From Dehalococcoidia bacterium (lineage in GTDB: Bacteria; Chloroflexota; Dehalococcoidia; Plut-88900), in assembly GCA_965207225.1 (NCBI GenBank), contig CBDBLV010000004.1, positions 384,001-448,000 on the forward strand: a DNA stretch of 64,000 nt, given 5' to 3'. The notes under the pieces are model-generated. The model was given only the letters and a program-made list of their open reading frames with translations. It was not told the origin of the DNA and searched no databases. Below are positions 4,488 to 60,955 of this stretch, piece by piece (position 1 is the first letter of the stretch; each line of letters begins with the position of its first letter). The position numbers and the translations under genes are program-made.

Positions 4488-4682
4488 TCAGTCGGGGGCT
4501 GGATCAGGCCAGGGAATCTTGGTTACCAATCCCATCGATTCCAGCAGTTCGATATCGGCTTCCTCGGCCAGGCCTTTATCCATGGGGCGTTTCGGAAGGG
4601 AATCGTCCTTAGAGAGACGTTGGCCATTCCTGACGGTAACGACATAGTCATTTGCCGGAGTTTTGACCTTGTGCAGTTTCAT
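4488..4682 (-). CDS. Small hypothetical protein (64 aa) between nrdR and nrdJ
   Basis: Fills the gap between nrdR and nrdJ on the same strand, starting 11 bp after the nrdR stop; no recognisable family. Confidence 0.45.
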   Translation of the reverse strand: MKLHKVKTPANDYVVTVRNGQRLSKDDSLPKRPMDKGLAEEADIELLESMGLVTKIPWPDPAPD

Positions 4683-4693
4683 TTCAACTACGC

Positions 4694-18893: not shown

Positions 18894-19730
18894 TCATGCC
18901 GTCTTAGGAGGTGGGCCCGGGGCGCGGGGAGCCTCCGGCGTCTGGCGCAACAGCAGATAGGCGCCGACGACCGCTACTGCAATCAGGGTCAAGAGGGCGA
19001 TAACGTGGGCCTGCTGCAGGGAGCCTATCCTCGCGGGGTCGTCACGGGTGAACTGGACGAGGAACCGGATGGCGGAGTATCCGGCCAGGTAGATAAGCAT
19101 GACCATTCCGTCGGGCCTGACGCGACCCAGGAGTTTCATGATTACGAAGAAGAGCAGGACGTCGGCGACCATTTCGTAGGCGACGGACGGGTGATAGCCA
19201 AGCTCTGCGCCTGACGCCGACTGAGGCACGGCCGGTCTGCCGGTGTTCAGCCCCGGCCAGCTCGGGTGGGTGTGGACCCAGCCCCAGGGAAGGCTGGTGG
19301 TGGTGCTGAAATGCTCACCGTTGATGACATCGCCAACGCGGCCTATGGTCTGGGCCACGAGCATCATAGGGGCGGTGATGTCGGCGAGCTTGCCGACGGA
19401 CTGCTTGTTGAGTATGGCCCAGGCAACACCCGTGACCGTCCCGCCGAGGAGCGCCCCCCAGAGCCCGACACCACCGTTCCAGATGAAGAAGATGTCGGCG
19501 GGGTTGTTTCGGTAGAAGTGCCAGGCGTCGAAGACGTGGACCAGCCGGGCCCCGACCACTCCGCCGGGCACGGCCCAGGCAGCGCAGGAATAGACTACCT
19601 GCTGGTCCATGCCCCGATATCGGGCCAATCTTGCAGTGCCGAAAACGGCAAATGCCACGCCGATGGCGGTGAATATGCCGTGCCAGGAGAGTCCCCCTAC
19701 CAGGTAGGGGTCCATGCTGATTTCAAGCAT
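18894..19730 (-). CDS. lgt: Prolipoprotein diacylglyceryl transferase
   Basis: GARLVHV, IWNGG.G.WG, AQTIGRVGDVINGE, LPWG, HPSVAYE, RFLVQFTR. Confidence 0.88.
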   Translation of the reverse strand: MLEISMDPYLVGGLSWHGIFTAIGVAFAVFGTARLARYRGMDQQVVYSCAAWAVPGGVVGARLVHVFDAWHFYRNNPADIFFIWNGGVGLWGALLGGTVTGVAWAILNKQSVGKLADITAPMMLVAQTIGRVGDVINGEHFSTTTSLPWGWVHTHPSWPGLNTGRPAVPQSASGAELGYHPSVAYEMVADVLLFFVIMKLLGRVRPDGMVMLIYLAGYSAIRFLVQFTRDDPARIGSLQQAHVIALLTLIAVAVVGAYLLLRQTPEAPRAPGPPPKTA

Positions 19731-19762: not shown

Positions 19763-19792
19763 AGTTTAGATGCACCGAAGAATCGGGGTCAA
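19763..19792 (-). promoter_or_regulatory. Putative sigma70 promoter of lgt
   Basis: TTGACC-18 bp-TAAACT about 30 bp upstream of lgt. Confidence 0.5.
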
Positions 19793-19831
19793 TCCGGTGT
19801 ACTCGTCCGGTGGACTGGGGGCGCAGCGGAG

Positions 19832-20586
19832 CTTTGTTCAGTTGTGGGGTGTTGGGTTTGTCTGTTGGGTTTTTGGGTCGGCGATGGAAGACGCCCTCTT
19901 GCCCTCAAACTGGCTTGCACTCTTCATTACGGGTGTTCCGGCTGTTGGGGGACCTTTAGAGCAGGCCCCGCCTGAGAGGGAGGGACTTGCAGCCGGCCGT
20001 GCCTTTTTGCTCGATTGTATTCACGGACCGGTCCGGGTCAGGACGTCCGCCAGAGACTCCTCTTTGGGCCGTATGCGCCAATGGGCACGACGGGGCCAGT
20101 GATCCAGCTGTGGCCCCACAGCCTATCTAATGATGTCCATGTTTGCCGGAGCTCTCAGGAGCGAAGTCTCCGGCGCCCCCGCGCACATTGCGCATCCTTA
20201 GCAAGAGCAGACCTATTTGGAGACGATTCTCCTCCGGGGGCAAAGGGTCCGCTGCATACCTCCTAATTAGTCACCCCCGCTGCTAAACTCCGTTGTCGGG
20301 AGAGGGGTGGGAGTAGAAAGCCAGGGCGTCTTTCCATCGCCTGGGGGACAGGGAAGGGACACGGAACCCAGTGGGATGAGGAGATGGCGTCCCCGACTTC
20401 TCGGGGATGACGTATTCGCTTGTGCCGCAACCTTCCTGCCTCGCAAGGGGGGCGATTGGCCGGTCGCCCCTACAAGAGAGGGGAGAGGTCTTGGGATGGG
20501 CTAGGGCGTTGAGTCCTCGGTGTCGGGTCTCGGGGGCTTCCCTGGGTTTTTGGGTTCCTCCTTAAGGTGGTGTCGGGTCTAGACTT
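19832..20586 (-). ncRNA. Candidate novel structured non-coding element, copy A
   Basis: Shares three sequence blocks with 59227-59703. Inverted arms at 20324-20341 and 19880-19896 enclose a hairpin-rich 427 nt. Has its own promoter and no conserved ORF. Confidence 0.65.
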
Positions 20587-20592
20587 AGAACA

Positions 20593-20621
20593 AATATAAA
20601 GCTCAAACGTTTGCATGTCAA
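20593..20621 (-). promoter_or_regulatory. Sigma70-type promoter driving element A
   Basis: TTGACA-17 bp-TATATT on the minus strand, pointing into the element. Confidence 0.75.
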
Positions 20622-20668: not shown

Positions 20669-20971
20669 AACCCTCACCCCCTTGATCCCCCTCTCCCTTA
20701 GGGCCTTTAAGGGAGAGGGGGAAAGAAGAACAGAGGCAGACGTGGGTGCGTTGCACCCACGTCTGCCTCTAGTTCAATACTGGGGACAATGGGGGGAAAC
20801 TTCTGGTCCAGGCGGAGGTGAAGGATGCAGGAAAGGGGAGGAGACGCCGCCCGACCCAACGGGGAGAACCCTCACCCTCTTGATCCCCCTCTCCCTTAGG
20901 TCATTAAGGGAGGGGGGAGGAAAAAACAGAGGGAAGCGCCTGCGCCATGGCGCAGGCGCTTCCCTCTAGTT
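20669..20971 (+). repeat. Two copies of a ~105-bp double-hairpin module (20669-20774, 20867-20971)
   Basis: AACCCTCACC..TTGATCCCCCTCTCCCTTAG..TAAGGGAG.GGGGA..AACAGAGG[palindrome]CCTCTAGTT, present twice. Confidence 0.8.
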
Positions 20972-58108: not shown

Positions 58109-58199
58109 TTGGCAATTCCCTCTCCGCAGAAAGATCCCACCCACGTACCACCCCTCAGCCCCGACAGTATATCCCACCCCCTCTCCTCCCACTCCGTCC

Positions 58200-59150
58200 A
58201 TAGCCCCCCGACCACTCCGTCATTCCCGACCCCGATCGGGAATCCATCCCCGGCGGGGCGGGGCCGAGTCCCCCTCCCTCGTAGGGGCAATCCCTCGTGG
58301 TCGCCCTGGGGTGGGGCCGCTCACCCTGAGCGACGAGTCGAAGAGCCTGCCCCTGCGAAGGCAGGGGGTTGAGCGGGGGTGGCCCGCGCCCCGCCAATAC
58401 GCCACCTCAGTGTTCGACCAGTCCACGCTCCTCACTGTCATTCCGATGCCCCGCGAGGAATTTAAGGCGTCTTTCCCTAAATCCACCTTGCCCCCTGAAA
58501 CCCGCCCGCCCCCGACCCCGATCAGGAAACCATCCCTTGGGGCGGGGCCGCTCATGCTGAGGCCCTCTTAAGCATGCCCCGAGTCCCTCGAGGGGTATGA
58601 GCGGGGGGAGGTCCACGTCTTGCCAAACCGTCGCGTCACCCTACATCCCACCCCGCAAAGAATCTACCGCCCCCTCCCCAAACCCACCCTTTCCTTGCCA
58701 CTCTCACCTCTTACTGGCATCCCCCCTTGGTAAGGAATTATCAGAAATGCTGCCAAGCAGCATTTCTGATAATTCCATAAAACAGGGCGGGTGGGTGGGA
58801 ACCGATTAAATCCTGGGGTGTGGGGAGGTGTACCCTTTCTTCCTCCCCCCAGTATTGAACTAGGGGGAGAGAGTGACCCTTCCCAGGCGGAGGGGCCGCT
58901 CATGCTGAGGCCCTCTTAAGCATGCCCCGAGTCCCTCCAGGGGTATGAGCCGGGGGAGGCCCACGCCTTGCCACTCCGTCGCATCCCTCCATAACCAACC
59001 ACCACCTTCTCCCCTGTCACCCCGAGGCCTCGCACGGAACCTGGGGTGGGGGCCGTCCCCTTCCGTCATTCCTGCGGAGGCAGGAATCCATTCCTCCTAA
59101 ATAGTCGCTTGCATCCCAGCAATCCCCCTCCATTCCTGTCCCCCCAAAAC
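58200..59150. repeat. Large cluster of REP-like palindromic repeats, including an 82-bp direct repeat (58544-58625 / 58892-58973)
   Basis: Same modules as 20.6-21.3 kb and 22.9-23.0 kb in reverse complement. The 82-bp copies differ at 4 positions. Confidence 0.8.
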
Positions 59151-59165
59151 CACTCCAAATCACCC

Positions 59166-59193
59166 TTGACATCTATGACAATCGTGCTAAACT
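59166..59193 (+). promoter_or_regulatory. Sigma70-type promoter driving element B
   Basis: TTGACA-16 bp-TAAACT with a TGn extension. Confidence 0.7.
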
Positions 59194-59199
59194 GTTTCG

Positions 59200-59703
59200 C
59201 AGTTCGAACTAATAATCTCGTTATCCAAGGAGGAACCAAAAACCCCAGGGAAGCCCCCGAGACGTCCGGGACGCCATCTCCTCACCTTCACGGATCCCGT
59301 GCCCCTTCCCTATCCATCCAGGCGATGGAAGGTCCACAACACTCTTACGGTGCACTCTCTTTGAAAGAGCATGCCGTCTGTGCGGATACCGCAAGAACCG
59401 CATCTACGCCACCGGCATTGACCTTGCCGGCGCGTCTGAAGGCCGCAACAGGCCTTGTTGGGAATCCCGTCCATAAGTCGGATTCCTCTGGCGTCTACCA
59501 CGACGACTCTGGCGGGCTTTGCCCGCTCTTTCGGTGGTTCAACCTCTATGGTGGACTGCCTGACCCGTTCACATACCCATAGACCCACCGAATATCCGCA
59601 GGGCAGGCATACCCGCCCCCTGAAAACCGAGTCCCGGACCTTCCATCGCCGACCCCCTCAAAAACAGACAAAACGAAACCCGAGACCCCACAACTCAATA
59701 AAG
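59200..59703 (+). ncRNA. Candidate novel structured non-coding element, copy B
   Basis: Same three conserved blocks as copy A. Perfect 15-bp inverted arms at 59321-59335 and 59636-59650 enclose 300 nt of successive hairpins. Confidence 0.65.
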
Positions 59704-59711
59704 GCCCCTCG

Positions 59712-59740
59712 TTGACAACCGACCCTCCAAAAAGCATACT
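59712..59740 (+). promoter_or_regulatory. Putative sigma70 promoter of the LLM-comDE operon
   Basis: TTGACA-17 bp-CATACT, 36 bp before the ATG at 59777. Confidence 0.6.
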
Positions 59741-59776
59741 CGCCGATGCACCCGGCCCCAGGGAAAGGAGAGAGTC

Positions 59777-60955
59777 ATGACGCTGCCCGCCCGCATGAGA
59801 TTCGGCATTTTCATGGCCCCCTTCCACTGGGCCGCCGAGAACCCGACCCTCTCCCTTGAGCGCGACATGGAGCTCCTCGAATGGCTCGACCAGCTGGGCT
59901 ATGACGAAGCCTGGATCGGCGAGCACCACAGTGGAGGTTGGGAAACCATCGCCTCCCCGGAGGTATTCATAGCCGCAGCGGCGCAGCGCACCAAGCACAT
60001 CAAGCTCGGGACCGGTGTCCTCAGCCTGCCCTACCACCACCCGCTTATGGTCGCCAACCGGATGATCCTGCTCGACCACATGACCCGAGGCCGTGTGATG
60101 ATGGGTGTCGGGCCCGGGGCCCTGGTCGGCGACGCCTTCATGCTCGGCATCGATCCGCCCCTCCAGCGCCAGCGCATGGACGAGGCCCTCAACATCATCC
60201 TGCGCCTCTGGACCGAGACCGAACCCATCACCTACGAAGCCGACTGGTTCACCCTCAAAGAGGCCACCGTTCACCTCCGCCCCTACACCCTCCCCCACAT
60301 CCCCATCGCCGTTGCCGCTTCTTACTCCCCGGCGGGAATGGTGTGCGCTGGGAAATACGGGCTTTCCGTGTTGTCGCTCAACACCATATCCGTCCCGGGC
60401 GCTGCCGCCCCCGATCTGGCCAAGTTCTGGGACATCGCCGAGGAGACCGCCGACAAGTACGGACAGACCGTCAGCCGGGACGACTGGGGCATCGTCATCC
60501 ACGTCCACCTCGCCGAGAGCCGCAAGGAGGCCATAGAGCAGGCCCGAGAAGCCTCAGGGCGGTACCAGAAGGAGTATTTCGAGGACACCCTTGGCCTCCC
60601 CAGGGCCTACGATGGCCCACAGGACAAGATCATCGACCACATGGTAGCAACCAACAACTGGTGTGTCGGCACCCCCGACGACCTGGTCGACACCATCCTC
60701 CGCCTCGAAGAGGAGTCTGGCGGCTTCGGCCGGCTCCTGATCCAGGCCACCGAGTGGGGAACCCGGGAGCAGGTCCTCCACAGCTACGAGCTCCTCGCCC
60801 GCTACGTCATGCCCCGCTTCCAGGGCTCAGTGACCAGCCTCCACGAGTCCCGGGAGTGGTCCGTAAAGAAGCGTGAAGAGCTCGTCGCCATGAATACCAA
60901 GGCCATGGACAAGGCCAAGGCCGACTACGTCAAGAGCGTAGCCTCGGGCCCCTAG
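59777..60955 (+). CDS. LLM-class flavin-dependent monooxygenase (limonene monooxygenase-like subgroup)
   Basis: FGIFMAPFH, GYDEAWIGEHHSGGWE.IASPE, LPYHHP, LDHMTRGR..GVGPGAL. Confidence 0.9.
   Translation: MTLPARMRFGIFMAPFHWAAENPTLSLERDMELLEWLDQLGYDEAWIGEHHSGGWETIASPEVFIAAAAQRTKHIKLGTGVLSLPYHHPLMVANRMILLDHMTRGRVMMGVGPGALVGDAFMLGIDPPLQRQRMDEALNIILRLWTETEPITYEADWFTLKEATVHLRPYTLPHIPIAVAASYSPAGMVCAGKYGLSVLSLNTISVPGAAAPDLAKFWDIAEETADKYGQTVSRDDWGIVIHVHLAESRKEAIEQAREASGRYQKEYFEDTLGLPRAYDGPQDKIIDHMVATNNWCVGTPDDLVDTILRLEEESGGFGRLLIQATEWGTREQVLHSYELLARYVMPRFQGSVTSLHESREWSVKKREELVAMNTKAMDKAKADYVKSVASGP

Follow-up and report, generated by a model that had tools for sequence, protein, structure and literature searches.

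Copies A and B in the window

The DNA analysed here, referred to as the window, is a stretch of 64,000 nucleotides (nt) from contig CBDBLV010000004.1 (positions 384,001 to 448,000) of the Dehalococcoidia bacterium assembly GCA_965207225.1. This 4.03 Mb genome is designated G000. The window contains two copies of a repeated element, copy B on the plus strand (59166-59703) and copy A on the minus strand, in each of which two complementary arms enclose an interior of several hundred nucleotides. The subject of this work is copy B and the family of dispersed repeats to which it belongs.

Copy B begins with a promoter-like site at 59166-59193 (TTGACA-16-TAAACT, with TG before the -10 and 10 of 12 consensus matches), the -10 region of which is similar by eye to those of the mini-gene and TerL-unit promoters described below. 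This is followed by a 5′ block that is kept across copies (59224-59320, with AAGGAGGAACC at 59227-59237), the 5′ arm GGCGATGGAAGGTCC (59321-59335), the interior (59336-59635), the 3′ arm GGACCTTCCATCGCC (59636-59650) and an A/C-rich tail (59651-59703) that ends in CACAACTCAATA (59689-59700). Beyond the tail a second promoter-like site (TTGACA-17-CATACT, 59712-59740, plus strand) precedes the neighbouring gene, which lies outside the element, is co-oriented with it and encodes a luciferase-like monooxygenase (59777-60955; PF00296, E 2.5e-48).

Copy A, read on the minus strand, comprises a promoter-like site at 20593-20621 (TTGACA-17-TATATT, 11 of 12 consensus matches), a long form of the 5′ block with extra hairpin modules (20342-20566, with AAGGAGGAACC at 20563-20553), arms and interior (19880-20341) and an A/C-rich tail (19826-19879, with CACAACTGAACA at 19846-19835). 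A second promoter-like site (19763-19792) stands ahead of the downstream gene, lgt (18894-19730; PF01790), both again on the minus strand. The arms of copy A, GGCGATGGAA-A-GACGCCC (20341-20324) and GGGCGTCTTCCATCGCC (19896-19880), pair through 10 bp in common with copy B, followed by one bulged A and 7 other bp.

The initial annotation of this locus had described perfect 15-nt arms around copy B, an outer 10 bp shared by the two copies and an inner part that differed and yet still paired. All of this was confirmed, the 15-nt arms GGCGATGGAAGGTCC/GGACCTTCCATCGCC of copy B being 100% complementary across a separation of 300 nt. The hairpins listed within copy B were also present, in its sequence as well as in its fold of minimum energy. 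The comparison with dinucleotide shuffles that had been proposed as a check was performed and both interiors folded better than the shuffles on both strands, with z-scores of -7.3 (plus strand) and -5.0 (minus strand) for copy B and of -3.2 (element strand) and -3.3 (opposite strand) for copy A.

Further features were noted around copy B. Short palindromes lie directly 3′ of the predicted transcription start (window 59200-59215, and in element leaders at other loci), two promoter types carrying GTTCGAAC and the third TCTAGA, and may serve as operators. The 1.6-kb gap 5′ of copy B (window 58110-59160) was filled by a mosaic of different short repeats, such as GTCATTCC..GGAATCC palindromes and ..GCTCATGCTGAGGCC.. 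units, which recur in many intergenic regions genome-wide. Long open frames run through copy B (59046-59582, plus strand) and antisense to the neighbouring gene (59546-60508, minus strand) and carry a risk of miscalling; six spurious open reading frames (ORFs) over copies A and B matched no Pfam family.

The copy B interior and the TerL-like gene

All the element interiors were compared by blastx with the ORFs of G000. Many interior types matched approximately amino acids (aa) 235-361 of a 462-aa ORF (G000:C1:233687-235075) and its paralog, and these matches were in sense frames only. The best element matched at 49% over 89 aa (E 2e-20) and copy B at 41% over 66 aa (E 2.5e-5), with two stops inside the alignment. 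At the nucleotide level copy B and the gene agreed at 79% over 43 nt, and a five-way alignment from arm to arm gave a mean column identity of 68%, with large deletions in copy B, the frame of which is broken by stops, frameshifts and deletions. Judged from the translated matches, the nucleotide matches and the arm-to-arm alignment, the interior of copy B is a decayed, deletion-bearing fragment of this gene, corresponding to a segment of the putative nuclease domain (about aa 235-361).

The parent protein matched no family in Pfam or NCBIfam. It was similar to PHROG terminase large subunits (E 1.5e-4 and 7.8e-4), and a protein atlas placed it (score 0.99) with Chloroflexota clusters in which Terminase_6C or Terminase_6N occurs, and also with viral terminases; from these similarities it is described here as terminase-large-subunit-like (TerL-like). 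A TerL profile hidden Markov model, which had far lower sensitivity than blastx against the close paralog, detected six elements in sense and none in antisense among six-frame translations. Two classes of arms were distinguished in the family, GGTCC/GGACC (class I, including copy B) and GACGCC/GGCGTC (class II, including copy A), the extensions differing between the classes and yet being complementary within each. One detected sequence, L042, proved to be a real protein gene with chance arms and was rejected as a false detection among the 106 distinct sequences described below; it was removed before sense and antisense matches were counted in the two classes. The sense score exceeded the antisense score in 61 of the 62 class I interiors (Wilcoxon p 4e-12).

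The arms are traceable to the same gene. In both paralogs the codons for S-D-D-G-R-F (GAC GAT GGA AGG TTC C) and for G-T-S-I-V (GGA ACC TCC ATC GTC) form an inverted repeat that is complementary except for one bulged A and encloses the segment matching the element interiors. The 5′ arm of copy B derives from codons for (S)DDGRF and the 3′ arm from codons for G(T/P)SIV. Relative to the parent, GAC..GTC has become GGC..GCC, GGTTCC/GGAACC has become GGTCC/GGACC and the bulge has been closed. Paired runs of 11-15 bases were present at the two arm sites in five of six loci of the genus; in orthologs from other genera (18 sequences, 51-56% identity) the longest such runs were of 6-10 bases, no better than in shuffles. 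Over 105 distinct copies of the element the stem was nearly invariant. Because it has been perfected in decayed copies, with both arms changing together, the closing stem appears to be kept as such.

These data divide an earlier suggestion that selection acts on structure rather than primary sequence inside the arms. The suggestion holds for the long-range stem, which is near-invariant and has co-changed arms, and fails as an explanation of the copy B interior, which is a decayed gene fragment: the intact parent-gene segment, with its closing stem, already folds at z -4.6. Some of the copy B hairpins are by-products of old codons, as with CCGGCA..TGCCGG, which comes from the codons for A-G-I-D-L-A-G. 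Nor can the difference between copies A and B be read as drift of a single structure; they differ because their interiors belong to different types.

Within interior types the predicted helices were well kept and compensatory pairs were present. When G-U was counted against A-C for pairs common to both strands, the values were 26/31, 60/35, 31/16 and 3/3. These counts are near even, so that pairing leaves the strand undecided, the counts favouring neither strand clearly; the initial annotation had taken such mismatches to point to both strands. RNAalifold produced no clean model from the joined 5′ and 3′ scaffolds. A proposed scaffold helix, CAGGGAAG/CTTCCCTG, was nearly invariant, with three shifted variants, and is weakly supported.

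TerL-like relatives were detected in 102 of 151 sampled Dehalococcoidia genomes, mostly as one match each, and genomes of the genus to which G000 belongs harboured two to four full-length copies each, in addition to partial ones. In G000 the gene (L181:7072-9076) is preceded by two small ORFs and has ordinary neighbours (PEPCK, UbiA, YidC, rpmH and rnpA), with no match to phage protein families among them. Its two TerL units, each of ~2.35 kb, are 84% identical from the promoter through the terminator and hairpin modules and have unrelated flanks. A terminator-like hairpin (TAGAGGC..GCCTCTG and a T run) forms, with the CCCCCTCTCCCTT..GGGAGAGGGGG hairpins behind it, a further repeat, found at 20731-20771 and 20927-20968 on the minus strand of the window and at L181:9110-9240; it closes the TerL unit and also stands before many element promoters.

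Apparent intermediates between these units and the elements were found. Three loci contained a longer, still-open gene piece covering aa 194-374 at 45-63% identity. One of these mini-genes lies immediately beyond the window. It retains the catalytic motifs, begins with an ATG and a short arginine-rich stretch, and is preceded by a promoter and a ribosome-binding site; it is 63% identical to the TerL-like protein over aa 195-374 and folds with the closing stem at z -4.4. The seven type-4 copies are shorter but share the start and arms of the mini-gene, and a type-4 relative in another genome retains an open 297-aa frame from which the catalytic motifs have been lost. The 5′ block of copy B was aligned with the 5′ ends of the mini-gene and type-4 copies at a mean column identity of 61%. 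It looks like what remains of the 5′ end of a truncated TerL-like mini-gene, ribosome-binding site and initial codons included, from which the ATG start codon has been lost.

Copies, range and placement of the family

G000 harboured 40 elements, together with seven copies of the type-4 sister form, three truncated mini-genes and two full parent units. When the 5′ part of copy B was searched against this genome, 66 matches were returned, in which the matched blocks were 85-97% identical, and anchoring on conserved blocks and arms yielded 41 loci, 40 of them with arms. The core motif GGCGATGGAAG (at most one mismatch) occurred eight times in the window against 1.88 expected, a number reached by 1 of 100 shuffles. 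The 40 interiors fell into ten sequence types with 14, 10, 5, 2, 2, 2, 2, 1, 1 and 1 members; the type of copy B has one partner in G000, while that of copy A (type cl5) is a singleton there. Identity within one type was 89-97%, and lengths in the 14-member type ranged only from 287 to 291 nt. The addition of 71 copies from other genomes gave 106 distinct sequences in 18 interior types. A few copies were chimeric, with arm extensions that do not pair. An 82-nt tandem repeat (2.4 copies, 80% matches, L153:784-976) is present in the type cl1 interiors and accounts for their length range of ~390-550 nt.

The copies share a common build. At the 5′ end there is often a terminator-like hairpin with further hairpin modules, then the promoter, which in nearly every copy is a motif close to the sigma-70-type consensus. 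A TTGACA-N(15-19)-TAnnnT motif was present at 28 of the 40 copies under this strict pattern, in three main types, of which the commonest, TTGACACA...CTATCAT, is similar by eye to the promoter of the TerL unit. After ~35 nt come AAGGAGGAACC-AAAAACCCAGGGAAGCC, optional hairpin modules, ..CGCCATCTCCTCA..ACGGGTCCCGTG..CCCTTCCCT..CCA, the 5′ arm, an interior of about 180-530 nt, the 3′ arm and the tail. Conserved sequence extends from ~155-370 nt 5′ of the first arm to ~50 nt past the second. Up to the tail-end motif CACAACYGAAYA, which was present (at most one mismatch) in 73 of 104 copies, the tail consists of 44.5% A, 40.4% C, 10.0% G and 5.2% T.

The tail carries a motif, ACAACYGAATA, that was found 23 times in the genome, 17 of them downstream of elements, and also in the leaders of the 16S and 23S rRNA genes. 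In these leaders it takes the form TTAACAAC(T/C)GAATAG, ~35-45 nt before the mature ends (L168:1443-1455; L169 about 4671-4683, minus strand; 16S leaders also in L170-L173). The 16S-leader motif is conserved across three genera of the family; CACAACYGAATA forms the end of the element tails. The shared ACAACYGAATAG motif may be a boxA-like signal, or may be left over by chance from TerL codons or from the leader of the operon. Derivation of the elements from an rRNA leader was considered and rejected, as the 16S and 23S genes have short leaders of their own with no element and only the 5S gene lies behind one. The 16S (G000:C4:510741-512337), 23S (G000:C5:49658-52796) and 5S (L147:2414-2531) rRNA genes are unlinked.

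The family was found by DNA search in all eight other genomes of the genus and in none of 32 genomes covering three other genera of the family-level group and 29 other families. A covariance model of the 5′ block matched 6 of 151 sampled genomes of the class, these being G000 and all five others sampled from the genus, and none of the 145 outside it. An exact-pattern scan with one genome per species gave 95 stretches, and the 80 listed were all titled as metagenome-assembled genomes of 'Dehalococcoidia bacterium'. The family, with ~50 loci per genome, is restricted to one genus of uncultured Dehalococcoidia. Rfam 15 at gathering scores identified only two tRNAs in the window and nothing on the elements; at E values up to 0.1 over 13 loci, the elements gave only weak, chance-level matches. 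No account of such repeats, or of the TerL-like gene, in Dehalococcoidia was found in the literature searched.

The elements are placed with a strong bias towards gene starts. The first downstream gene was co-oriented for 37 of 39 copies in G000 (one further copy is at a contig end) and for 56 of 63 in other genomes. Among the 38 copies for which both neighbours were called, 21 lie between divergent genes, 15 are in tandem and co-oriented, one is in tandem and anti-oriented and one lies between convergent genes, which leaves 36 of the 38 facing a gene start. The downstream genes are mutually unrelated and many are housekeeping genes: uvrA, rpsO, rpoB, recA, gyrB, nusA, leuS, a GlnRS/GluRS-type gene, mnmA, ribF, folD, def and lgt (copy A), besides the luciferase-like monooxygenase gene (copy B), several amidohydrolase genes and others. 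One copy stands ~470 nt 5′ of a 5S rRNA gene (L147:2414-2531), and another is followed by an IS481-type transposase gene with rve and HTH domains (L128:1405-2532). A strong terminator-like hairpin intervenes between element and gene at 11 of 39 copies and is absent from the other 28. The possibility that the elements are retron non-coding RNAs was set aside, no reverse-transcriptase domain being present in the 39 downstream genes scanned (upstream genes were not scanned).

The same genes bear elements in other species, but with other interior and promoter types. Across species the GlnRS-type gene is preceded by interiors of types cl2, cl8, cl1, cl1 and cl0, and the gene behind copy B by cl3 or cl1. 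Nineteen elements of other genomes, lying 5′ of 12 different genes, have no counterpart at the G000 ortholog. No target-site duplication was seen at a pair of filled and empty sites, where the flanks are mosaics of other repeats.

Origin of the elements and comparison with known repeats

The account that we favour, with somewhat better than even confidence, is that copy B, which is non-coding, arose by deletion and decay from a TerL-like unit that has become a dispersed repeat in one genus. The elements as a whole would be non-autonomous, probably transcribed derivatives of this repeated unit. The copies would descend from a truncated mini-gene in which the first small ORF of the operon became fused to approximately aa 195-374 of TerL and from which the start codon was later lost. 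Their spread and homogenisation may have occurred by recombination between copies, possibly with help in trans from intact units. Transcription would still run in the direction of the next gene and yield either a non-coding RNA upstream of it or a long leader, in which the arms would set the old gene segment apart as a domain of its own. It is the stem, which might serve in processing or stabilisation, and not the interior that selection or the copying process would keep; this inherited stem would be the only part with demonstrable constraint.

Several observations weigh against this account. The first is that among class II interiors, copy A included, the sense score exceeded the antisense score in only 20 of 43 (p 0.40). 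For copy A itself no TerL similarity was detected, the best sense match scoring 16.5 bits against 21.9 for antisense. The exception is the chimeric type cl6, all four members of which matched in single-sequence nhmmer queries (E down to 2e-15); beyond cl6, such queries gave no class II match at E below 0.1. Without TerL similarity in class II, a single origin of all the interiors is therefore not shown, and the alternative that the initial annotation had set against its own structural reading, that the interiors are decayed pieces of ordinary protein genes, applies to copy B, copy A showing no detectable relation to the TerL-like gene. Secondly, in type cl2 98.6% of cells pair, more than in shuffles, and 10 pairs have changed on both sides against 6.3 +/- 1.3 expected from shuffles, a value reached by 0 of 500; the covariation score is 0.144, compared with 0.02-0.05 in slid controls. 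This test overstates the pairing because the type contains two subfamilies and its copies are related, but there may be some selection on interior structure. Thirdly, elements stand at the same housekeeping genes in several species and almost never between convergent genes, which suggests a function in cis beyond gene debris. Neither terminal inverted repeats nor target duplications could be recognised where the elements end, and no mobilising enzyme is evident. Lastly, transcription is indicated by a weak hint, a single low-depth RNA contig of 181 nt over 59473-59653 (five differences and one gap) from a metatranscriptome library that may contain DNA. The same library held nothing near-identical to the neighbouring gene of copy B, and transcript ends and levels are unreadable because contigs break at repeat borders.

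A more ambitious form of the descent from TerL units would make the 2.35-kb unit, with its promoter, two small ORFs, TerL-like ATPase-nuclease and terminator modules, an autonomous mobile element of a new kind, in which the terminase-family protein mobilises the unit, the ~50 fragments are non-autonomous and the internal inverted repeat is the recognition signal for the enzyme or for the copying process. This is put forward as a doubtful possibility.

The bias in placement is what would be expected of a domesticated cis-regulatory cassette, a strong promoter and long structured leader serving ~40 mostly housekeeping genes, in which the shared 5′ block, stem and tail would provide common control through stem processing, control of termination at the tail or a signal like that of the rRNA leaders. 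Such a role would agree with the recurrence of elements at the same housekeeping genes in other species, with the facing of gene starts by 36 of 38 copies and the single convergent case, with the 28 of 39 copies that have no terminator before the gene, and with the ACAACYGAATA motif (17 of 23 downstream of elements), the 16S-leader counterpart of which is conserved across the family. It is nevertheless unlikely: a second promoter-like site separates element and gene at both A and B, a strong terminator follows 11 of 39 copies, interior and promoter types are freely swapped at one gene between species, G000 orthologs manage without the element, and the sequence is that of gene debris.

That last point could be taken further, the elements then being inert debris of repeated duplication and decay of TerL units whose arms match only by descent and gene conversion. 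Stops, frameshifts and deletions, the chimeric copies with unpaired arm extensions and the concerted evolution implied by 89-97% identity within a type are all compatible with this. Inertness is nonetheless improbable, as paired changes have made the arms pair better than those of the parent gene, near-consensus promoter motifs persist at 28 of 40 copies under the strict pattern, placement and orientation are far from random and the family is present in all nine genomes of the genus.

There is little likelihood that the elements are a structured non-coding RNA family selected for its fold, with the interior as the functional part. The z-scores of -7.3 and -3.2 for copies B and A, the compensatory pairs within interior types and the conserved closing stem speak for such a family, and against them stand the gene origin of the copy B interior, the nearly equal folding of the intact segment (z -4.6), the replacement of one interior type by another at the same locus, the absence of an Rfam family at E up to 0.1 in 13 loci and the even strand counts. 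Least probable of all is a signal in DNA, by which the segment bounded by the inverted repeat would be a pac-like or cleavage site for the TerL-like ATPase-nuclease and a small partner at ~50 chromosomal places; it would suit the position of segment and inverted repeat inside the TerL-like gene itself, the nearly strand-symmetric pairing, the presence of the gene in 102 of 151 genomes of the class and the lack of phage families among its G000 neighbours, but binding or cutting is nowhere shown, a DNA site would need neither retained promoters nor strict orientation towards genes, and other genera have the gene with neither inverted repeat nor elements.

The family shows how a sequence with the ornate look of a non-coding RNA may in fact be the debris of a gene. 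An internal segment of a protein-coding gene, flanked by the two halves of an inverted repeat, stands in ~50 copies with a promoter ahead of genes such as rpoB, recA, gyrB and nusA, and the family is a trap for the discovery of RNA motifs and for gene calling, as long open frames cross its copies. Mobilisation by the terminase-like unit, if it occurs, would represent a new route to bacterial interspersed repeats and a new activity of the terminase family; transcription into the neighbours, if it occurs, would mean that the expression of housekeeping genes has been rewired across a whole genus.

Among known systems, miniature inverted-repeat transposable elements (MITEs) and other non-autonomous derivatives are similar in that many short, non-coding intergenic copies have been internally deleted from a longer coding unit of few copies and differ in presence between genomes. 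Unlike in MITEs, the inverted repeat described here is internal and comes from the middle of a gene rather than being terminal, target duplications were not observed, and the parent encodes a terminase-like protein and not a known transposase. Bacterial interspersed mosaic elements (BIMEs), REPINs and BOX elements are mosaic intergenic repeats, and the present family is modular in the same manner, with promoter, optional hairpin, interior and terminator modules variously combined; its modules are far longer, and several are traceable to one gene unit. Correia (nemis) elements of Neisseria are likewise dispersed intergenic repeats with built-in promoters that would form a long hairpin if transcribed beside genes, and their hairpins are cleaved by RNase III. 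They measure ~100-155 bp, fold through terminal repeats and have no gene origin, whereas the units described here are of 0.5-0.9 kb with a gene-derived interior of 200-550 nt.

Correia elements with their promoters, and REPINs, are named in the description of putative mobile promoters (Nijveen, Matus-Garcia and van Passel, 2012; PMC3575422), in which closely similar promoter-bearing sequences stand 5′ of unrelated genes in one genome and the route of spreading is unknown, as with the present elements. Of the published concepts, these promoters and promoter-bearing repeats of the Correia kind come nearest to the present family. The similarity used there (>=80% over >=50 nt, non-homologous genes) is reached by the blocks of 85-97% identity, the published -150 to -50 window not having been applied. 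The putative mobile promoters occur mostly in pairs and were defined in a 100-nt window (PMC3575422); the elements of this family, in contrast, have ~40 members per genome, are much longer and have a traceable gene origin.

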